In this document: positions 9,882-23,029 of the stretch, in pieces
Numbering within the stretch: position 1 is the stretch's first letter
Layout: each line of letters opens with the position of its first letter
Origin: a phage
Direction: 5' to 3' (one strand)
Sequence record: PZ357121.2
DNA length: 64,000 nucleotides
Notes under the pieces: generated by a model
Seen by the model: only the letters and a program-made list of their open reading frames with translations
Told to the model about the DNA's origin: nothing
Database searches by the model: none
Program-made: the position numbers and the translations under genes

Positions 9882-10693
9882 AATTCTAATTTATCCTTTT
9901 GAAATTCTTCGTCTAAATATGGGTTCCAACCCATTTTAAACCTTTTGATGAAATTATCAATTCTAAATTTCGGTAAGTTTAAATCCGCAAAAATAGATGA
10001 TTTACTTTTAAAATCTGGACTTAAATAATCATATAAAATTTCTGCGTATTTTAACCATAATATACAAGTACCAGATTTAATTGCTCTCGGAGTTTTCCAA
10101 GGTTTTACACCATACATCGGATTTCCACTTCCTTTATGCCTGATAGAAGATGAAATTCCAATTTTAATTTTAGCTTCCTTTGTATGCGAAAATCCACGAT
10201 GTGGATTTTCTTTCCAGTATTTTTTAGAAGCTTCTGATATTTTCTTTCTGGCTAAATTAGTATGATGCTTTCCATAAAATCCATGATTTTTGCCTTTATT
10301 ACGATTTCTTTTAATCATGGTTATTGATTGCTTTTCTCTAGTTTCTTTAGAAGGAGAAATACCATATGTCGTAAATTGGCCATCAGCATATGCTAAATTA
10401 AAATACTCTTTATTCCATACATCTTTTTCTATATTCTTTTGAAATTCAGCTTCAATGCTAGTTATTTGTTCATCTCCGACTAATTGAAAATATAATATCT
10501 CAACTTTCGGCGTTTCTTTCAATAAGGCTTTTTGAAATTCGGAAGATGACGAAGACGAATAATAAAATTTACCATTTTTATCAATAATATTCGTTCCGTC
10601 AAAAGTGCAATTGGTTTTACTTCCAATGTAATAATATGGCGGGGTTTTAGCATTAATTCTACTAATAAACGATAGTTTATATACTACATTCAT
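9872..10693 (-). CDS. free-standing GIY-YIG family homing endonuclease-like protein (Seg-like)
   Basis: 273 aa; N-terminal VVYKLSF...PPYYYIGSKT; NUMOD3-like repeats (KETREKQSITMIKRNRNKGKNHGFYGK, HTKEAKIKIGISSSIRHKGSGNPMYG). Confidence 0.6.
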   Translation of the reverse strand: MNVVYKLSFISRINAKTPPYYYIGSKTNCTFDGTNIIDKNGKFYYSSSSSSEFQKALLKETPKVEILYFQLVGDEQITSIEAEFQKNIEKDVWNKEYFNLAYADGQFTTYGISPSKETREKQSITMIKRNRNKGKNHGFYGKHHTNLARKKISEASKKYWKENPHRGFSHTKEAKIKIGISSSIRHKGSGNPMYGVKPWKTPRAIKSGTCILWLKYAEILYDYLSPDFKSKSSIFADLNLPKFRIDNFIKRFKMGWNPYLDEEFQKDKLELCL

Positions 10694-12300: not shown

Positions 12301-12596
12301 TATTGTTCTACACATGCACAGGAAACTTCGAAATCAGGACCGTCGTACTTCCAGTGATATTCACCAACAGGAATCCAGTCACCATGCTCGTTTTCTTCAT
12401 AGTCCTCAGGCTCAAGGCCAACGAATCGCCATTGGACACCGATGATTCTATTACCCATCATTACTCGAAATTCGCCCCATGGATTATCAATAGCATACTG
12501 AATATCGTTCTTAGCACGAGAACACATTTCTTGATATAACAAAGTTTCTAATTCGTCCTGGTCATAAGGGCCTGGGAAAGTTAAATCGATATTCAT
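12300..12596 (-). CDS. hypothetical protein, flanked by 23-bp direct repeats
   Basis: ORF track 98 aa. Confidence 0.5.
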   Translation of the reverse strand: MNIDLTFPGPYDQDELETLLYQEMCSRAKNDIQYAIDNPWGEFRVMMGNRIIGVQWRFVGLEPEDYEENEHGDWIPVGEYHWKYDGPDFEVSCACVEQ

Positions 12597-12615
12597 TTAA
12601 AATATTCTCGCAGTT
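12593..12615. repeat. 23-bp direct repeat, copy B (tcatttaaaatattctcgcagtt)
   Basis: encodes the last codons of nrdC (QLREYFK*) and overlaps the start of the next ORF. Confidence 0.9.
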
Positions 12616-12856
12616 GGTCAAATCCACCAATGTGACTTCCGTCAGGAGCAAACACTTGAGGCATCGTCAATCCAACATGTGTTTCACGTCCAAGCTTAGC
12701 CAGAAGCTCAGCAATTTTTTCTTCATCGAATACACCTTTTTCTGGCATAACATTAATGAATTCGAACGGCTGTTTCTTAACAGTCAGCAATCGTTTCGCA
12801 TTATCACAATAAATGCATTTATGAATAGTAGAGTCATACCCGTACACTTTAAACAT
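12593..12856 (-). CDS. nrdC: thioredoxin NrdC
   Basis: 87 aa from ATG at 12856 (MFKVYGYD); redox CIYC motif; ORF track start is 6 codons upstream. Confidence 0.85.
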   Translation of the reverse strand: MFKVYGYDSTIHKCIYCDNAKRLLTVKKQPFEFINVMPEKGVFDEEKIAELLAKLGRETHVGLTMPQVFAPDGSHIGGFDQLREYFK

Positions 12857-13262
12857 TATTTTTCCTTTCATCAATTAAATATGCAATGCCAAATACAATA
12901 CATGTAATAAAACCTGTGATACAGATAGAAACCAACAACACTGTACCAAAGAACCAAATCAAGTTATCTTTAGTAGTTTGTTTGATATCCATCTCACGAA
13001 TTTCTATAGCTATCGTATCACCTTTATTCAGAAGCGTATAAAACGATGGCGATACACGCCTGTCAAAAACTCGTCCTTGCTCATCTTTATAGACTGCAAT
13101 AAATTCTAATTTAGAATATTTTCCTGTAGATTGACCTGAGATTAGCTCTACTACCTCCACAGGAATTACTTTAGTTTCCATGTAAGTATTCTGGCTGTTC
13201 CAAATGAATGGAATGATGGCAAAAACTAAAGCTGCAATAAAGCAACGAAGGCTATATCTCAT
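12849..13262 (-). CDS. hypothetical membrane protein
   Basis: 137 aa; hydrophobic N- and C-terminal segments. Confidence 0.5.
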   Translation of the reverse strand: MRYSLRCFIAALVFAIIPFIWNSQNTYMETKVIPVEVVELISGQSTGKYSKLEFIAVYKDEQGRVFDRRVSPSFYTLLNKGDTIAIEIREMDIKQTTKDNLIWFFGTVLLVSICITGFITCIVFGIAYLIDERKNNV

Positions 13263-13567
13263 TATAATGTTCTCTCAAATTTGTGGAAGCATTTACGGCA
13301 TTTCAATTTCAAGTTATCAGTGGTCCAGTTAACCAGTTGGACTTGGATAGTTCCACATTCCGGACATGGATGTTTTGCTGCCGATTTGGCAGCATTTTCA
13401 CGTCGTTCAACCATTTTCATGATTTCGTTCCATGCCGGAGGAACGAACTCTTCTTCACTGTGGATTTTATCTCGCTGAACAAATTCAATCTTTGAACTAT
13501 CGTCAATAAACTTAACCAAGCCGTGATTAGTGCTCATATCAATATCCTCTAAAAGACGTAGTTTCAT
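13262..13567 (-). CDS. hypothetical zinc-ribbon protein
   Basis: 101 aa; CPEC...CRKC. Confidence 0.5.
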   Translation of the reverse strand: MKLRLLEDIDMSTNHGLVKFIDDSSKIEFVQRDKIHSEEEFVPPAWNEIMKMVERRENAAKSAAKHPCPECGTIQVQLVNWTTDNLKLKCRKCFHKFERTL

Positions 13568-14517
13568 TATAAAACCTCAATGGCATTTCGTAAACCGTCC
13601 GCTTTCGCATTCAGAGCTTTTAACGATTTAGTTTGTTCTGCAATCTGGGCTTCGACTTCTTTCAGACGAGATTTGAGATATTCGCGTTCTTCTCTTAAGT
13701 TATCAACTTTTTCTGCTTTAGGCTCTTTAATAGGCTTAGGCTTATACTCGTTAGGGTTCTTCAGCTTAATTTGAATACGAGAACTGAATAACATTGAACC
13801 GTTATCTTCGGTTTCATCATACATTTCTACCACGTCCATGATTCTTAACATCATGCGAAGTTTATAAGACAGCGAACGAATGGTTTTGTTGCGCTTATTA
13901 ATTTCTTCGGCTTTCATGGTACCGAGATTACGTGAGTAGTAATAAGGAACCTGGATATCAATTGTCAATGATGCGTTACCATTACCGGTTGGTTTGAATA
14001 CTGCAGTAACCCAATCTTTAACATGAACTTTATTTGTACGACCATCGCCGCCTGTGAATAATTTACGTGAATGTTTAAAAAGCATATTCACTTGGTTATT
14101 GAATTCACAAGCAAATTTATCGGCAAATTTAGTTTCAGGAATGGTAGATAACCAATCAGCCAAATGAGTCTTTTTAACATCGTTAATAATAGTAAATTCA
14201 ACTAAATCAGTTTTAGGTGTCACAGATTTAATAAAGCTCGGCTTCATAAAGTTTTTAATGTTATCACGAGCTACAGTAGAAGATAATAAACGAGAACGTT
14301 TGAACCATTGAAGCAGTGTCCCTAATGAATGAGAATACGCATTCTGAGTATCTTTACAGATATGATTTTCTTGGCCTGTGTATGTACCAAAATCGCGAAG
14401 AATACCACTTACTACAACTCGGTGTGGAACATCAAATCCTAATGAACCAGAAGCACGTTGGGCATGAACGTTAGCGATAAGACCTGCAAAATAATCAATG
14501 TAATGTGAACGTGTCAT
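13567..14517 (-). CDS. hypothetical 316-aa protein with C-terminal coiled coil
   Basis: ORF track; C-terminal heptad-like LREEREYLKSRLKEVEAQIAEQTKSLKALNAKADGLRNAIEVL; own promoter upstream. Confidence 0.55.
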   Translation of the reverse strand: MTRSHYIDYFAGLIANVHAQRASGSLGFDVPHRVVVSGILRDFGTYTGQENHICKDTQNAYSHSLGTLLQWFKRSRLLSSTVARDNIKNFMKPSFIKSVTPKTDLVEFTIINDVKKTHLADWLSTIPETKFADKFACEFNNQVNMLFKHSRKLFTGGDGRTNKVHVKDWVTAVFKPTGNGNASLTIDIQVPYYYSRNLGTMKAEEINKRNKTIRSLSYKLRMMLRIMDVVEMYDETEDNGSMLFSSRIQIKLKNPNEYKPKPIKEPKAEKVDNLREEREYLKSRLKEVEAQIAEQTKSLKALNAKADGLRNAIEVL

Positions 14518-14545
14518 AATATTTTCCTCTCGTTAAGATAGAAAG

Positions 14546-14575
14546 ATTATACTCCAACCGTCCTTGGTTGTAAAC
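14546..14575 (-). promoter_or_regulatory. early-type promoter with spacer hairpin (GTTTACAACCAAGGACGGTTGGAGTATAAT)
   Basis: near-identical core at 15539-15568 and 16599-16622. Confidence 0.55.
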
Positions 14576-14579
14576 TGAT

Positions 14580-15512
14580 TTATGATTTTAATGCATTCAT
14601 TGCGTTAAAAAGTTTAGAGTACTGCAACTGGAGCTTGGTAACTACTTGTTGAGCATCACGAAGCTTAGCTTGTGCTTTGTCAAGTTCAACAGACAGTTGG
14701 TCCACAGTGGCTTTGATTTGATTATAATAGTAATCTTCTGCAGGAAGAAGACCGTTAGAGATTTCCAGTTTAGACGACGGTGTGCCGTTAAACATAACAG
14801 GTTGTGCTGAAGCTGAATTAATCTTACCGATAGTCGGGGCGACAATAATTGACGCTTCGAACGTTGCATTTTCCTTTTTAAGATTTTTATAATATTCAGA
14901 GTCTTTGTGCCACCATGGCGCAGGAACCTTTTTACCAATAGATACACGAGCCTGGATAGCGATATGGCCCTTATTCTTGATAACGTCGATAATATTAAGC
15001 TCACGAGAATAAATTGCTTTAATCTGGTGAATATTATCACCTAACACTTCCAACGCTTGGTGGAATACACGAGCAACGTTATCATTCTTAGGTTTATACG
15101 TAAGAGTGAACTCGTTCTCACTGATAACCATGATTTCCAACTTATCGTAAGTATATTTCAAATGTTTCATGTTAATTGCTTGAGGACGAATACGAGAAGC
15201 AATGGCCATCAGATTGTTAAGGTTATTCCGGAACTGCTTAGCGAAATATTGTCCTTCACCACCAATACAAAAATTACGAAGTTTCTGTTTGGCTAATAAA
15301 CGGCTGAACTCACCATTTTTAATGAACTCTTTAACGGGGGTGTTAGTAACGCATTCAAATTGAGTAAACTTACGAGAAGTAATTCCATAATACGAACAGA
15401 TTTCCTCAATCTCTTCAGGAGTCTTTACAGGCATACGGATAGGATTAGGACCTGGGGTATATGCGTTCGAGGTAAATTCTTTGATAAGTTCTCTACGTGT
15501 AATAAAAGCCAT
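14580..15512 (-). CDS. hypothetical 310-aa protein with C-terminal coiled coil
   Basis: ORF track; C-terminal VDQLSVELDKAQAKLRDAQQVVTKLQLQYSKLFNAMNALKS. Confidence 0.55.
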   Translation of the reverse strand: MAFITRRELIKEFTSNAYTPGPNPIRMPVKTPEEIEEICSYYGITSRKFTQFECVTNTPVKEFIKNGEFSRLLAKQKLRNFCIGGEGQYFAKQFRNNLNNLMAIASRIRPQAINMKHLKYTYDKLEIMVISENEFTLTYKPKNDNVARVFHQALEVLGDNIHQIKAIYSRELNIIDVIKNKGHIAIQARVSIGKKVPAPWWHKDSEYYKNLKKENATFEASIIVAPTIGKINSASAQPVMFNGTPSSKLEISNGLLPAEDYYYNQIKATVDQLSVELDKAQAKLRDAQQVVTKLQLQYSKLFNAMNALKS

Positions 15513-15538
15513 TTTATATTCCTCATGTTGAAAAATTT

Positions 15539-15568
15539 ATTATACTCCAACCATCCTTGGTTGTACAT
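15539..15568 (-). promoter_or_regulatory. early-type promoter with spacer hairpin (TGTACAACCAAGGATGGTTGGAGTATAAT)
   Basis: paralogous to the element at 14546-14575. Confidence 0.55.
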
Positions 15569-16563
15569 CATTCCTTAAGAAGTTTTACTACCTGAATAAG
15601 ATTAGCTCGTTCTGTTTTATTTTTACCGTTTAAGCCTGCTAATCGTGAGATTTCATCGTCAGTCTGTTGAATAGTTACATTAAGTTCGTTAATCAAAGCT
15701 TCAAAGTATTTGATTTGCTCAGCATGTTTTGATTCAAATTTCTGAACTGGAATAACGTCTTGGTTTAGTTCATCAATAAGGTCTTTAAGAGCATCTTCTT
15801 GGTTGATATCATATTCAACTTCTTTTATTTCTTCAATGAGCTCGTCTTTATATCTAACGTCTTTTAGTCCTGGTGCTGGTCCTGAAATCTCTTCTTTAGG
15901 AGTACAAACATATCCAATACGGTATCCAATGCCGTCTCGCTTGATATCAACTTCGTCAATAAATCCACAATGTTTAAGACCAGAGCCGATTAGGTCAAAA
16001 TATCCTTGACGTCGTCCTTCAAACGTTACACGAACTACTAAGACAGTTTTACCTGCAACCTTTTGAAGCTCACATTTATAAAAGTCTGTTGAACCTGAAT
16101 AACGTGGATGAGTTTTAAAGTTCATCTGACGATCTAGGCCCATTTGTAAGCGTGCTGATACGGCCATAAAACGTGTTTGGTTCTCGTTAAGATGAGCAAC
16201 AATCCATTTCAAAGGCATTTTACACTGTTCACGACCGAACAAATCAGTATATCCTAGATTACGCAGAATGTTGTTAGAGTTAATCATCGACAGAACGTTA
16301 AGTTTATTCAGCGCGCTGAAGATTCCATCGGCCATTGATTTTCCGTAACCTTTACACGCTTTAATAAGCGCTCGCGGTAGATTAGTATAGATTTCAGACG
16401 GCATATGAAAATCAAATTTACTAGTCAGTAATTGATGAACTTGGATAGCAATTTGCTCATAATTAAGCGCTCTGCGATCATTATGGTCTTTAAACCACAC
16501 TTTAATCTGTGAAGCACATAAACCGTTAATTTCATGTTTTACCGCATCAGATGTAATGCTCAT
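15568..16563 (-). CDS. hypothetical 331-aa protein with C-terminal coiled coil
   Basis: ORF track; C-terminal QIKYFEALINELNVTIQQTDDEISRLAGLNGKNKTERANLIQVVKLLKE. Confidence 0.55.
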   Translation of the reverse strand: MSITSDAVKHEINGLCASQIKVWFKDHNDRRALNYEQIAIQVHQLLTSKFDFHMPSEIYTNLPRALIKACKGYGKSMADGIFSALNKLNVLSMINSNNILRNLGYTDLFGREQCKMPLKWIVAHLNENQTRFMAVSARLQMGLDRQMNFKTHPRYSGSTDFYKCELQKVAGKTVLVVRVTFEGRRQGYFDLIGSGLKHCGFIDEVDIKRDGIGYRIGYVCTPKEEISGPAPGLKDVRYKDELIEEIKEVEYDINQEDALKDLIDELNQDVIPVQKFESKHAEQIKYFEALINELNVTIQQTDDEISRLAGLNGKNKTERANLIQVVKLLKE

Positions 16564-16598
16564 AACTATTTCCTCAGATTGAATTGGAACTCAAAACC

Positions 16599-16622
16599 AT
16601 TATAACCCGTCCTTGGGTAAAG
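16599..16622 (-). promoter_or_regulatory. early-type promoter containing CCAAGGACGGGTTATAAT core
   Basis: third member of the CCAAGGA(C/T)GG promoter family. Confidence 0.45.
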
Positions 16623-16625
16623 CGT

Positions 16626-17153
16626 TTATGCGTGAACCGTCTTTAAACGTTCTTCAAATTTCCGAAGAGTACTAATACGTTCTGCTTTCTGTTTTGTATA
16701 GTTTGCAATACGTTCTGAAGTGAGAGCGTATCGTTCGTTTACTGTTTCTTTCATGAAGTCAGGGATTTCACGAGAAGCTTTAATTTCATCAAACTTATCG
16801 AGTACTGCCTGGTCTTCAGCGATTAAATTTTCGTACATCTCGATATCTTTCTTGATAAACTCGATATCTTCCTGGGTTACTTTGGATAAACGAGATGCTT
16901 TATCCTTTTTGTACTGCTCGTTAGTTTCACGAGACCAGAATAATGTACGTTTTTTGTTAGTGTTTTTGTAGACTTCCACAATTCCAACTGAATCGATGAT
17001 AGCAATCCAATTCCAGCGAGATTTGAAAATCTGACCTCCGTCCACGGTAATCTCGTTACCATAAGCAACGTCATTAAAGAACTTGCTTTGTGCTTCAGAT
17101 TTAAATTTACCGTCGTTATAATTTACCAGGTTGAAAATATCTTTAGCGTTCAT
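16626..17153 (-). CDS. hypothetical protein
   Basis: ORF track 175 aa; GGAGGT before ATG. Confidence 0.55.
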   Translation of the reverse strand: MNAKDIFNLVNYNDGKFKSEAQSKFFNDVAYGNEITVDGGQIFKSRWNWIAIIDSVGIVEVYKNTNKKRTLFWSRETNEQYKKDKASRLSKVTQEDIEFIKKDIEMYENLIAEDQAVLDKFDEIKASREIPDFMKETVNERYALTSERIANYTKQKAERISTLRKFEERLKTVHA

Positions 17154-17172
17154 GTTTTACCTCCAGTAGTTG

Positions 17173-17209
17173 ATAGGTCTATAATAACATAACCATAGAC
17201 CTTGTAAAC
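17173..17209 (-). promoter_or_regulatory. early-type promoter with -10 inside hairpin (arms AGGTCTAT/ATAGACCT)
   Basis: minus strand GTTTACAAGGTCTATGGTTATGTTATTATAGACCTATC. Confidence 0.5.
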
Positions 17210-17211
17210 AA

Positions 17212-17499
17212 CTAAAAGAAACTTTTTTCGGTATTTTTTCCACTGAACCAAACCGATTTCGGAATTTTCTGTAATTTTTCAGATTTAAGTTTCTCTTCCT
17301 GTTCTTTCTTATATGCATCCTTGTCGTACCGGAACAACTCTAGGGCATTCTTTTGTAGACGGTCTAAGGTAATTAAGGCTTTAGTTTTTCCTTTCAAGGA
17401 AGAGTCCTGGCGAACCTCCTCGCTATATTGCATCGTAGAACTAACCATACGATGAGCATAGAGTTCGACTGCGGCTTTAATTTTTTGCATAAAATCCAT
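17212..17499 (-). CDS. hypothetical protein
   Basis: ORF track 95 aa. Confidence 0.45.
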   Translation of the reverse strand: MDFMQKIKAAVELYAHRMVSSTMQYSEEVRQDSSLKGKTKALITLDRLQKNALELFRYDKDAYKKEQEEKLKSEKLQKIPKSVWFSGKNTEKSFF

Positions 17500-17637
17500 A
17501 ACATATCCTCTTTGATTTGTACATCATTATTTTTAAATATTTCTATGCCCTCAGTAGGTTCCTGGTGTCCTTATTTGAGGTAAGCCATATGATTATTCAT
17601 CTTTATGGCTTTTGTTACCTCAGAACTTCCTATAAGC

Positions 17638-18639
17638 TTATTTCAGTAAAGTTACTTCAGAGATTTCCTCCCAACCATCTTTGTCAGTTGAAATAAAATC
17701 TGCTACGTAAAGAGCCGTACGTAATGATACATTGCGAAGACGAGATACGTTAGCCTTCATCCAGGACAAGGCTTTATACGTTTCTGCATCTGTCAGACCA
17801 CGTTTCTGCATCATGTCAGTAGATAATATTACATCTTCAACTCGAACCATAATCTCTTCATTAGAGTGTACTCCAAGGTCGAGATACACTGAACGAGATA
17901 CTAAAGCTTGAAGGTGTGGGGCAAGTTTCGAACCGCGTTCTAACTCTTTATCGATATCAACGTTTGTAATGAAAACGATAGTACCTTCAAACTCAAATTC
18001 TTTATCAATACCCTTATCATCGAGATAAGATGACGCAGTGCTCCAGCAAACTTTGCGTTTATCTCCAGTATCTAATGCTGCTTTAAGAAGGTTCAAGATG
18101 TCCATATCTGAGAATACGTCAACGTCGTCGATTAAGAGAACGCTGTCTGCATCACGGTTGAGCCAAAGTTGTTCGTAAAGGCCGATACCAGAGATTTTAC
18201 CATTAATGCTTTTGTATTTGATGAAACCGTTATCATTAGCATTATTAAGTGCTTTATCCAGAGAATACGTCTTACCAATACCAGCTGCACCTGAAATAAT
18301 GAGTGAACGAATTTTACCATCGATAATGCCATTCGTCATCATGTTCATTACTTTAAAGCGTTTGTTGATACGAGTTTTCATATCTTCAGTGCTTTCAACA
18401 ACTGCAACTGGTGATGTCTCAACTCCTTCCATTACGATGTCTGATTTGAAGACCCATACTCCACGTTCAGAACCATCAATCATAACGAAAATTTTACCAT
18501 CACCTAAGTGGGAACATTCAGGATTAAGCTTTGCCGGGAACCAGGTCTTTGTGGCAACATAAGAACCAGAGATTTCGTTATTACGATAGATACCTTTTTT
18601 GATTTGAACGTTGAACATTTTATTCTCCAATTTACTCAT
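17638..18639 (-). CDS. P-loop ATPase (AAA-like)
   Basis: 333 aa; Walker A GAAGIGKT, Walker B VLLIDDVD, sensor-like FITNVD. Confidence 0.65.
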   Translation of the reverse strand: MSKLENKMFNVQIKKGIYRNNEISGSYVATKTWFPAKLNPECSHLGDGKIFVMIDGSERGVWVFKSDIVMEGVETSPVAVVESTEDMKTRINKRFKVMNMMTNGIIDGKIRSLIISGAAGIGKTYSLDKALNNANDNGFIKYKSINGKISGIGLYEQLWLNRDADSVLLIDDVDVFSDMDILNLLKAALDTGDKRKVCWSTASSYLDDKGIDKEFEFEGTIVFITNVDIDKELERGSKLAPHLQALVSRSVYLDLGVHSNEEIMVRVEDVILSTDMMQKRGLTDAETYKALSWMKANVSRLRNVSLRTALYVADFISTDKDGWEEISEVTLLK

Positions 18640-18647
18640 TTCGTTTC

Positions 18648-18684
18648 GATAGGTCTATAGTATCATATCCTAAAAGCATGTACA
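18648..18684 (-). promoter_or_regulatory. early-type promoter (TGTACA...TACTATAGACCTATC)
   Basis: shares the -10/right-arm sequence TATAGACCTATC with the element at 17173-17209. Confidence 0.4.
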
Positions 18685-18714
18685 CTACTTTTTTAAAATA
18701 TTTTAACCCCCTAA

Positions 18715-18735
18715 AGGGACCCGAAGGTCCCCACA
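18715..18735 (-). terminator. terminator-like hairpin GGGACC-TTCG-GGTCCC
   Basis: plus strand gggacccgaaggtcccc immediately 3' of ORF 18737..19018; weak T-run. Confidence 0.4.
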
Positions 18736-19049: not shown

Positions 19050-20039
19050 TTATTTATAGTAAGAATTATGATTTTCGAGATAGACTTGTTCAAGGAAGTC
19101 ATCCCAGAAACTCATATCTACTTTTTGTTGCATGCCGTTCTTGGCAGCTTGTTCTGATGCTTGTTCAACTTGGTCAACGATATCTTCTAGGAATTCTTGT
19201 ACAGTTTTAAATGTATGTTTACCAAGCTTAACATCGAGAATAAATGGAGCATCCTGAAGTGGGTAAACCAGATCGCCTGTTTTGTAAATTTCCAATAATT
19301 GAAGTCCACCACGACATGCATGACTCAATGCTTTCCAGTCAATACCTTCGTTAGCTTCTGCCTTACGAGCACGTTCACCATAGTTCTCTTCCAGTTTAAC
19401 CAGGATGGCATTGAACTCTTTATTGGTTAATGTGTCTTGGAATTTACGGTCTAACAGATTATAGAATGTTTGCTTACCTGTTTTCTCGTTTTCAGTTTCA
19501 ACCCACGAAGCAAATTCACCTACAGGCAGAACATTCTTCATATGTGATAAACGAATTACTGCACCATTATCAAAGTATTGTCCCCATTCATTAGAACGTT
19601 TAAGGGCTTGACGAAGAACAGCCAGTCGAGAACCCTTGACACCGTATTTAGAAGCTTGCTTACGGACGTACCCTAAATAAGATTTCATGTTAGTGGTATA
19701 GAAACGAGACCTGTTGTCTTGAATATACTTCCATACATCAGGCAAATCAGATTTAACTACTAAACTTGGTGGAGTGTGAAGCATATCTAATGCGACGGTT
19801 TCACCATCTGCAGCTAGTTTAAAGAAATATTTGAGACTATACAACTCATGGTCCACGTCGTCTTTTGTGTTCTTAGAAGATGTGTTATTCGTGTTCTTGC
19901 TCACGTGTTCTTTAACGTTACCGGTCAAGATATCACGAGCATGAGGGACATAAATTTCTTTAAAATCGACGTCGGATTCAGGAGTAGACGTTCCATAAAG
20001 GTGGCTACCAAAGTAGCCTTTCATAATTGTTTTCATCAT
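19050..20039 (-). CDS. predicted nucleotidyltransferase (Pol-beta superfamily fold motif)
   Basis: 329 aa; N-terminal GSHLYGTSTPESDVDF fits the GS-x(9-13)-DxD NTase signature, with a further acidic residue in ETVALD; start overlaps stop of upstream membrane protein (ATGA). Confidence 0.55.
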   Translation of the reverse strand: MMKTIMKGYFGSHLYGTSTPESDVDFKEIYVPHARDILTGNVKEHVSKNTNNTSSKNTKDDVDHELYSLKYFFKLAADGETVALDMLHTPPSLVVKSDLPDVWKYIQDNRSRFYTTNMKSYLGYVRKQASKYGVKGSRLAVLRQALKRSNEWGQYFDNGAVIRLSHMKNVLPVGEFASWVETENEKTGKQTFYNLLDRKFQDTLTNKEFNAILVKLEENYGERARKAEANEGIDWKALSHACRGGLQLLEIYKTGDLVYPLQDAPFILDVKLGKHTFKTVQEFLEDIVDQVEQASEQAAKNGMQQKVDMSFWDDFLEQVYLENHNSYYK

Positions 20040-21892: not shown

Positions 21893-22195
21893 TTAGATAG
21901 ATGTAGGCTCTAATTTTATTTTCATGAACTCAGCAAATTGTCTGGCAGTTTTTATGCCTTGTTCATGACATTCAAATGCATCATCACAGGGGCTATTTTT
22001 GTAATGCTTTGCCATATACTTATAGAATTTTTCAGAATTCTCGACATTTTGAATTTCAAACAAAGTATATACGTTTTTAATCCCTGATTCCATAAAGTTA
22101 TCAAAATATGGGTCGATATATGCAGTACCAACGATAGGAGTTGTTGCTGCAAAAAACCCCAGCATCGCCATGACAGCTATCGCTCTTAAGGCCAT
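21893..22195 (-). CDS. rI: lysis inhibition regulator rI (antiholin-like, signal-anchor N-terminus)
   Basis: 100 aa; similarity to my recollection of T4 RI (AMLG...DPYFDNFMESGIKNVY...PCDDAFEC...FMKIKLE). Confidence 0.8.
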   Translation of the reverse strand: MALRAIAVMAMLGFFAATTPIVGTAYIDPYFDNFMESGIKNVYTLFEIQNVENSEKFYKYMAKHYKNSPCDDAFECHEQGIKTARQFAEFMKIKLEPTSI

Positions 22196-22447: not shown

Positions 22448-23029
22448 TTATAACAACCCTGTCAAATCGTTCCAATGCTTCCGGCATAATGACACATATC
22501 TATCGGTATCACCAATTTCAATTTGACTGCCATCTGTAATTGGAAGTCCGTCTTCCGTGACTCTAGCTACCATTGTGGCCTTTTTACCACAATGACAGAC
22601 ACCTTTAAGTTCAACAAGCTTATCGGCAATAGCCATTAATGCTTGAGAACCTTCAAATAGATTACCTTTAAAATCTGTTCGTAGTCCATATGCCATTACC
22701 GGCACATTGTATACGTCAACAATACGACTAAGTTGATACACCTTTTCAGTAGTTAAGAACTGAGCTTCATCAACAAATACACAGTGAATATCCTTTTGTG
22801 CTGCAGCCCATTTATAGAATTCAAAGATATCCATGTCTTTTGTAATTATATTGGCATCCTGACGAATACCAATACGAGAGACTATTTCACCTTTTGAATC
22901 ACGAGTATCAATAGCCGGTTTAAGAACTAATACACCCATGCCACGTTCTTTATAGTTATGTGCGGCAGTAAGTAATGAAGCAGACTTACCAGCGTTCATA
23001 GCGGCATATGTAAAAATTAAACTAGCCAT
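22448..23029 (-). CDS. tk: thymidine kinase
   Basis: 193 aa; P-loop AAMNAGKSASLL; zinc-binding C-terminal CHCGKKA...SLCRKH. Confidence 0.9.
   Translation of the reverse strand: MASLIFTYAAMNAGKSASLLTAAHNYKERGMGVLVLKPAIDTRDSKGEIVSRIGIRQDANIITKDMDIFEFYKWAAAQKDIHCVFVDEAQFLTTEKVYQLSRIVDVYNVPVMAYGLRTDFKGNLFEGSQALMAIADKLVELKGVCHCGKKATMVARVTEDGLPITDGSQIEIGDTDRYVSLCRKHWNDLTGLL

Follow-up and report, generated by a model that had tools for sequence, protein, structure and literature searches.

A tandem array of NrdC.5-related genes with predicted coiled-coil tails in the nrdC-rI region of a Mosigvirus-type phage

The closest described system to the genes considered here is NrdC.5 of bacteriophage T4. 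Neither ECOR17 nor a dsr1-carrying MG1655 allows a T4 deletion mutant to plate; plating is regained on the former by deleting dsr1 and on the latter by supplying nrdC.5 in trans. On MG1655 itself nrdC.5 is dispensable (Srikant, Guegler and Laub 2022, PMC9391042). Dsr1, for its part, is an NADase of the SIR2 type, and recognition of the major capsid proteins of phages by its sensor domain has recently been reported (PMC13581612). Literature searches on nrdC.x names, mechanisms and DUF numbers returned nothing beyond PMC9391042. Here we analyse a block of six genes at positions 13567-18639 of a stretch of phage DNA of 64,000 nucleotides (sequence record PZ357121.2; the whole stretch is called the window). 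Its three large genes encode a member of the NrdC.5 family and two further proteins which, judged by profile comparison, are whole-length tandem paralogues of it within one superfamily, NrdC.3/.4/.5/.6. As far as the searched literature shows, neither this paralogy nor the family-specific promoter hairpin that accompanies it has been described.

Two other groups of phage proteins lend themselves to comparison. DSAD1 of phage SPbeta binds the defence-associated sirtuin DSR2 and stops NAD+ depletion (PMC10973363, PMC11087589). It would be a functional analogue acting by the same kind of mechanism as proposed here, although it addresses another defence protein (DSR2, not Dsr1) and comes from another phage group. 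The likeness noted is one of function; a relationship in sequence was not detected, nor was a search aimed at it made. The T-even internal proteins IPI, IPII and IPIII also constitute a variable family in a hyperplastic region of these phages, their bodies varying while a short targeting segment is common to all; IPI acts against GmrSD and IPIII against an unknown system of ECOR17 (PMC9391042). However, the segment shared by the IPs is an N-terminal capsid-targeting peptide and these proteins are injected with the DNA, whereas the family in the window shares a predicted C-terminal coiled coil and its bodies appear homologous.

The source of the window is a Mosigvirus-type T-even phage: the segment 13200-19100 is 96-98 % identical to many such phages (e.g., JQD51, phi25-307 and JS09) and is matched by 672 phage records, 141 of which cover at least 80 % of the query. 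As a preliminary description of this DNA had stated, the block lies in the variable region between nrdC and rI; the T4 NrdC match (91 % identity) is found at 12596-12856 and rI at 21908-22195, with tk at 22451-23029. The six open reading frames of 316, 310, 331, 175, 95 and 333 residues that it had listed were recovered with exact limits, all on the minus strand. T4 counterparts were assigned to the open reading frames of the window by BLASTP against the T4 proteins, and the three large genes are as follows.

13567-14517, minus strand: coiled-coil paralogue 1, 316 residues; homologue of T4 nrdC.3 (57 % identity over 316 residues, E 9e-120)
14580-15512, minus strand: coiled-coil paralogue 2, 310 residues; NrdC.5 family (DUF7235), 24 % identity to T4 NrdC.5 (E 1e-9)
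15568-16563, minus strand: coiled-coil paralogue 3, 331 residues; homologue of T4 nrdC.6 (29 % identity over 271 residues, E 2e-18)

The 316-residue protein matches phrog_1435 at 7e-104, with homologues that all carry PF26897 (654 phage records), and the 331-residue protein matches phrog_2257 at 7e-127, with homologues carrying PF26899 (742 phage records). The Pfam model DUF7235 (PF23882) covers the 310-residue protein from model position 1 to 307 of 307 at 1.2e-111 and 373.5 bits (gathering cut-off 30), and the same model matches T4 NrdC.5 at 5.3e-126 and 420.6 bits. Besides this full-length match, the two proteins have in common their architecture, their position in the gene order and the tail motif, but they are only 24 % identical, and in the window protein other sequence stands in place of the linker and of parts of the head. 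T4 nrdC.3 and nrdC.6, whose orthologues are the 316- and 331-residue proteins, are described as hypothetical proteins; together with T4 nrdC.4 they are here linked as NrdC.5 paralogues. The block is thus made of known T4 nrdC.x homologues and does not represent a novel type of system. The preliminary description had held that clear homology to nrdC.x housekeeping proteins devoid of a shared tail would speak against its view of the block; the homology is clear, but these are not housekeeping genes and the tail is shared.

The same description had taken the N-terminal regions, or heads, of the three large proteins to be unrelated, and alignments of single head sequences are no better than alignments of shuffled ones (z -1.0 to 0.7). 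Family profiles lead to the opposite conclusion. For these, loci anchored on the conserved neighbouring gene for NrdC.10 were fetched (57 from IMG/VR and 8 from GenBank), and open reading frames of at least 150 residues were extracted from them and clustered into families. The last 55 residues were cut off before the heads were compared, so that the links obtained cannot be driven by the coiled coil. Run on such heads-only profiles, hhalign gives a probability of 85 % for nrdC.3/.4 with NrdC.5, both of which are also linked to several families that other genera have in single copy. With merged head profiles, the nrdC.3/.4 group matches NrdC.5 with 94.5 % probability (E 7.6e-8, 175 colinear columns), the NrdC.6 group with 95.2 % (E 2.8e-8, 158 colinear columns) and a group from Acinetobacter phages with 90 %, while eight unrelated neighbour families used as controls stay at or below 2 % and reversed profiles at or below 0.4 %. 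The blocks shared by the heads follow each other in the same order, F-K-R-S-R-L-L-S..A...L..F, e-F..N...L...a.r-L..G-d-d-R and a helix with M-D-v-V-e at its end, after which P-V-(E/Q)-K-(F/W) opens the tail. AlphaFold2 models of the 316- and 310-residue proteins, both of low confidence, suggest a similar succession in the two: some helices come first, three strands and one long helix follow, and the linker and the tail helix close the chain. A Foldseek search of BFVD with the first of them (316 residues), a poor model, returned its own orthologue and hits of low template-modelling score (at most 0.33). Since both heads and tails are homologous by these comparisons, the three genes appear to be whole-gene tandem paralogues, and the apparent unrelatedness of the heads reflects divergence past the reach of single-sequence comparison.

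The tails were evaluated with a simple heptad score set against 100 shuffled sequences. The score is strongly positive at 267-316 of the 316-residue protein and at 260-310 of the 310-residue protein (reached by 0/100 shuffles), and likewise for T4 nrdC.3 and nrdC.5. The first protein consists of a head (about residues 1-255), a Pro/Lys-rich linker and a heptad helix at 273-316 ending in ...GLRNAIEVL; in the second a hypervariable linker (217-252) precedes a heptad helix at 269-310 that ends in ...KLFNAMNALKS. In the best register each has six uninterrupted heptads, i.e. 42 residues, with hydrophobic residues at 10/12 a and d positions in the 316-residue protein (273-314) and at 11/12 in the 310-residue protein (269-310). 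AlphaFold2 predicts single helices there for the monomers (275-315 and 258-309, respectively) with a predicted local distance difference test (pLDDT) score of 70-85. Of the three heptad-rich tails initially announced, that of the 331-residue protein is only a partial one: about four heptads (283-310) are followed by a Gly-containing break, AGLNGKNK, and a short terminal amphipathic helix, ...NLIQVVKLLKE, and its heptad score is no better than that of shuffles (p ~0.2).

Pairwise alignment of the three tails, which had been suggested as a check, is marginal (z 1 to 2); what ties them together is a common terminal motif and profile links through intermediate families. The motif consists of a hydrophobic residue followed by x-x-x-L-x-x-A-(L/I/M/V)-x-x-L-K, and it recurs in 13-15 families of proteins of about 290-390 residues from T4-like phages of many hosts. 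Tails-only profiles connect NrdC.5 to several motif-bearing families at 67-96 %, with the C termini in register. The three families of the window are more weakly linked when compared directly (36 %, 0.9 % and 0.7 %), the best link via intermediate families being 95.7 %.

Two observations concern the tails of relatives. In the T4 reference genome (L001, NC_000866), nrdC.6 (9997-10300, minus strand) carries a deletion of 1 nucleotide relative to a close Tequatrovirus (L024, 13037-13345), reading GAGCTG-ATATT against GAGCTGAATATT of the latter. The 70 nucleotides before nrdC.5, annotated as "intergenic", retain the code for the conserved coiled-coil tail, ...ISIQQYDDEIFRLSGLSSKAKSEREKLIKIVDLLKS, but in another frame. 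The T4 reference NrdC.6 is therefore tail-less, in contrast to the window, where the tail of nrdC.6 is intact. In phages ACG-C40 (H142) and Pinarejo (H154), the tail-coding part alone of nrdC.3 or nrdC.6 is found in unannotated DNA (85 % and 60 % identical, over 15 % and 14 % of the query, respectively); these stretches may be remnants of deletion or recombination.

The superfamily occurs only in T4-like phages, to judge from the sequence searches. When 1.84 billion proteins were searched exhaustively with the profile of the nrdC.3 family, 7 matched. Six belong to these phage families, and the remaining one (P0062, E 3.6e-4) seems to be a repetitive sequence matched by chance. Word-indexed homologue searches found close relatives only, and NCBIfam, PADLOC and Rfam gave no relevant match. 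Among 66 sampled loci, 15 contain 3-5 copies, 27 (from other genera) contain one and 24 have NrdC.10 but no copy, distant relatives being devoid of the coiled-coil family. The loci with 3-5 copies are of Tequatro-, Mosig- and Dhakavirus type, i.e. E. coli T-even phages, and in 15/15 of them the gene order NrdC.11-NrdC.10-NrdC.8-NrdC.6-NrdC.5-(NrdC.4)-NrdC.3 is fixed. Between genera the paralogues are 20-57 % identical, as compared with 69-83 % for NrdC.8, NrdC.10 and NrdC.11; within Mosigvirus, variation of NrdC.5 is concentrated in the linker (217-252). The nrdC.3 gene of the window is 77 % identical to one Tequatrovirus copy but 57 % to that of T4, and alleles therefore cross genus lines.

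Each paralogue is preceded by a promoter-like element containing a small hairpin. T4-type hyperplastic regions are known to harbour, before variable open reading frames, a cassette called PeSL, in which a TTTACW-N17-TAYWAT promoter has a stem-loop in its spacer (PMC2839356, PMC4122927), and a MotA-type variant (PmSL) has been described as well (PMC4122927). The elements of this kind in the block are the following.

14546-14574, minus strand: early-promoter-like cassette upstream of paralogue 1, TTTACA-N17-TATAAT with hairpin AACC-AAGGAC-GGTT (14556-14569) in the spacer; 11/12 promoter matches, PeSL-type
15539-15567, minus strand: second copy of the cassette, upstream of paralogue 2, TGTACA-N17-TATAAT with hairpin AACC-AAGGAT-GGTT (15549-15562)
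16599-16627, minus strand: promoter-like element upstream of paralogue 3, AAACGCTTTA, with hairpin ACCC-AAGGAC-GGGT (16605-16618), then TATAAT
17172-17228, minus strand: promoter-like cassette upstream of NrdC.8, TTTACA-N16-TATTAT (17181-17208); one copy of a repeat of 57 nucleotides
18648-18704, minus strand: second cassette of 57 nucleotides, upstream of NrdC.10, TGTACA-N16-TACTAT; 70 % identical to 17172-17228

The first two sites have the early-type promoter and the stem-loop between -35 and -10 that define PeSL, and a repeat of 27 nucleotides precedes the genes for the 316- and 310-residue proteins, 96 % identical between the copies (the second at 15539-15565). The element upstream of the 331-residue gene reads CGCTTTA-N13-TATAAT and overlaps the stop codon of NrdC.8; no sigma-70 -35 hexamer is found at 17 nucleotides. 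From the T4 consensus and the note on PmSL in PMC4122927, we infer that it is MotA-box-like and would act as a MotA-dependent middle promoter. The proposal that each gene stands behind its own promoter is consequently borne out in an amended form, with sigma-70-like sites before the genes for the 316-, 310- and 175-residue proteins and the ATPase, but with a MotA-box-like site for the 331-residue protein. A terminator-like hairpin (18705-18721) precedes the NrdC.10 cassette.

As in the PeSL cassettes of Arbiol (2010) and Comeau (2014), promoter and spacer stem-loop are combined in a hyperplastic region before variable open reading frames, but the combination of an AAGGAY loop and NNCC/GGNN stems belongs specifically to the coiled-coil paralogues. 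Within the 64-kb window, an NNCC-AAGGA(C/T)-GGNN hairpin directly followed by TATAAT is confined to the sites upstream of the three paralogous genes. Taking all loci together, 30/78 family genes are preceded by it (about 0.36 expected), and the stems in relatives exist in six variants with compensated changes. The nrdC.3 alleles shared across genera, together with the tail-only stretches in ACG-C40 and Pinarejo, are indirect hints that the cassette may mediate recombinational shuffling of the genes it flanks.

The best reading of these data, drawn from architecture, evolutionary pattern and one T4 phenotype, is that the three genes belong to an old tandem array of a diverged T4-phage superfamily encoding early or middle oligomeric binders whose heads block host immune sensors, and we regard it as moderately probable. 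Each protein would comprise an alpha/beta head of about 250 residues, a Pro- and charge-rich linker and an amphipathic C-terminal helix of 40-50 residues ending in the conserved L-x-x-A-(L/I)-x-x-L-K, and each gene has its own copy of the promoter-plus-hairpin cassette. The proteins would be made early or at middle times and oligomerise through the tail helix, the fast-evolving heads would bind and block host immune sensors, and different paralogues would probably be aimed at different targets. NrdC.8, NrdC.9 and NrdC.10 are separate neighbours outside this coiled-coil system. An accessory or anti-defence role, at which the preliminary description had guessed, is plausible; it is proven for T4 NrdC.5 only, the DUF7235 protein that restores infection of dsr1+ E. 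coli.

More tentatively, the array may be an immune-evasion multigene family in which an ancestral gene was duplicated along with its cassette and the copies came to hit different sensors while keeping a common oligomerising tail. The ancestral state would still be seen in the T4-like phages of Klebsiella, Enterobacter, Yersinia and Acinetobacter, which have a single copy, duplication having taken place in the E. coli T-even lineage, and Dsr1 would be the first known target among the host immune sensors hit by copies of the array. The genes themselves are known T4 open reading frames present in hundreds of sequenced phages; what is added is the link between them, by which the Dsr1-countering NrdC.5 joins nrdC.3, nrdC.4, nrdC.6 and the single-copy gene of many T4-like genera. 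If the array is indeed an immune-evasion family, it would supply three or four candidates for further counter-defences, possibly against defence systems that are still unknown. Copy-number expansion and fast divergence make the uncharacterised paralogues testable inhibitor candidates against other E. coli defences, and the conserved tail helix is a target for mutational testing.

Several points weigh against the interpretation as an array of oligomeric immune-sensor blockers. The predictions that bear on the putative oligomerisation by the tail are of monomers and give single long helices. The whole-model pLDDT is 53.6 for the 316-residue protein (23 homologues) and 41.9 for the 310-residue protein (18-row superfamily alignment), confidence being confined to the tail helices. 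Sequence searches of the PDB with the family profiles gave no relatives. Direct pairwise head links are uneven: nrdC.3 is linked to NrdC.5 at 85 %, whereas NrdC.6 is reached through intermediates or merged profiles only. The T4 NrdC.5 studied experimentally shares only 24 % identity with the 310-residue protein of the window, which may therefore have another target, and among the paralogues a published phenotype exists for T4 NrdC.5 alone. Finally, positions 35-136 of the nrdC.3 profile (A1) match residues 161-271 of T4-type NrdC.5 (P0060; L001 8974-9996) in a non-colinear manner, at 52-54 bits and E 1.6e-9 among 1.84 billion proteins, whereas no shuffle exceeds 12 bits. The match is not seen with broader profiles, which do not support the internal duplication of the head that it might have indicated.

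Among the alternatives, the one that survives best, although we think it rather unlikely, is an accessory early role in host takeover unrelated to immunity, such as the remodelling of a host complex, in which case the effect of NrdC.5 on Dsr1 would be indirect. The single published phenotype is genetic and not biochemical, and the conserved terminal motif could dock all paralogues on one common partner, both of which fit such a role. However, the combination of expansion only in phage genera of E. coli and Shigella, fast divergence and exchange of alleles across genera is the usual pattern of an arms race, and what nrdC.5 on its own brings about is a dsr1-specific rescue.

It is improbable that the whole block is one machine in which an AAA-like ATPase acts with the coiled-coil proteins and the two small open reading frames. 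In favour of such a six-gene unit are the adjacency of the genes on one strand and an order, NrdC.10-NrdC.9-NrdC.8-coiled-coil genes, that E. coli T-even phages conserve. The neighbours concerned, and the gene that follows them, are these.

16626-17153, minus strand: NrdC.8 homologue, 175 residues, 83 % identity to T4 nrdC.8; phrog_2274; conserved
17212-17499, minus strand: NrdC.9 homologue, 95 residues, Pfam DUF7203 at 7.9e-24, 33 % identity to T4 nrdC.9
17638-18639, minus strand: NrdC.10 homologue, 333 residues, P-loop AAA-like ATPase, 77.5 % identity to T4 nrdC.10
19050-20039: nrdC.11, the next gene, 78 % identity; RlaP-type nucleotidyltransferase

NrdC.10, however, is present in 1312 phage records, including phages of Vibrio, Aeromonas and Acinetobacter and jumbo phages, and is without a coiled-coil gene in 24/66 sampled loci; in Aeromonas and Cronobacter phages (L008, L009) it stands beside genes for topoisomerase subunits and no coiled-coil gene lies close by. 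Independently of NrdC.10, the coiled-coil genes range from 0 to 5 copies, the promoter-like sites are separate, and evolutionary rates differ about three-fold. NrdC.10 is accordingly a separate, widely conserved phage ATPase and not part of the coiled-coil array, and NrdC.8 is unrelated to the latter as well: it was considered as a truncated family member and rejected, hhalign giving at most 3 % against the coiled-coil families. Among the 66 sampled loci, NrdC.8 is found only in those with an expanded array.

The motifs first noticed in NrdC.10, GAAGIGKT (Walker A, 117-124) and LLIDDVD (Walker B, 168-174), are invariant or nearly so in an alignment spanning nine genera, and they are accompanied by VFITN (222-226) and a helical lid. 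All matches to AAA models of Pfam remain below their cut-offs (AAA_22, 22.1 against 27; AAA_16, 20.5 against 32.6; AAA_14, 16.9 against 27), NCBIfam gives no match, and Cdc6, at E 0.18, is the best that the PDB offers. The weak matches to this protein and to clamp-loader PHROGs, the Walker motifs, the sensor-1-like VFITN and the helical lid with a conserved Arg resemble AAA+ proteins of the Cdc6/ORC or clamp-loader type, from which NrdC.10 differs by an extra N-terminal domain of about 75 residues. A role in DNA metabolism seems worth testing.

Slightly less probable still is the modular arrangement proposed in the preliminary description, a family of effectors in which unrelated heads are swapped onto a common coiled-coil tail. 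The failure of single-sequence head alignments, the same terminal motif on all tails and the isolated tail remnants in H142 and H154 would all be expected of it. Yet it is largely refuted by the tail-less head profiles, which are homologous and colinear at 94-95 % with clean controls and which argue for whole-gene paralogues; moreover, orthologues keep one and the same order in three genera, and no head was seen with two different tails, nor any tail on two different heads.

That these are housekeeping or nucleotide-metabolism proteins, as a GenBank label would have it, is very hard to credit, for although many records are annotated as thioredoxin and the genes adjoin nrdC, no thioredoxin or glutaredoxin domain is matched, the label follows the positional nrdC.x names, T4 nrdC.5 is dispensable on MG1655 (PMC9391042), and divergence is very fast with variable copy number. 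The label "thioredoxin" is widely applied in GenBank to homologues of nrdC.3, nrdC.5, nrdC.6 and nrdC.10. Because Pfam and NCBIfam scans find no thioredoxin or glutaredoxin domain in these proteins, it has the look of a label that spread from the positional gene names, and the annotation of these genes is corrected here.

Some minor features of the locus may be added. The gap of 138 nucleotides between NrdC.10 and NrdC.9 (17500-17637, minus strand) contains a hairpin, GAGGUAA..GCCAUA / UAUGGC..UUACCUC, with a minimum free energy of -27.5 kcal/mol (z = -2.3) and without an Rfam match. At the nrdC-rI locus of the window nrdC.1, nrdC.4 and mobD are absent, the lack of nrdC.4 being a further difference from T4. 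A homologue of T4 nrdC.7 (41 % identity, a predicted membrane protein) adjoins nrdC at 12849-13262 on the minus strand, whereas in T4 this gene is placed between nrdC.6 and nrdC.8.

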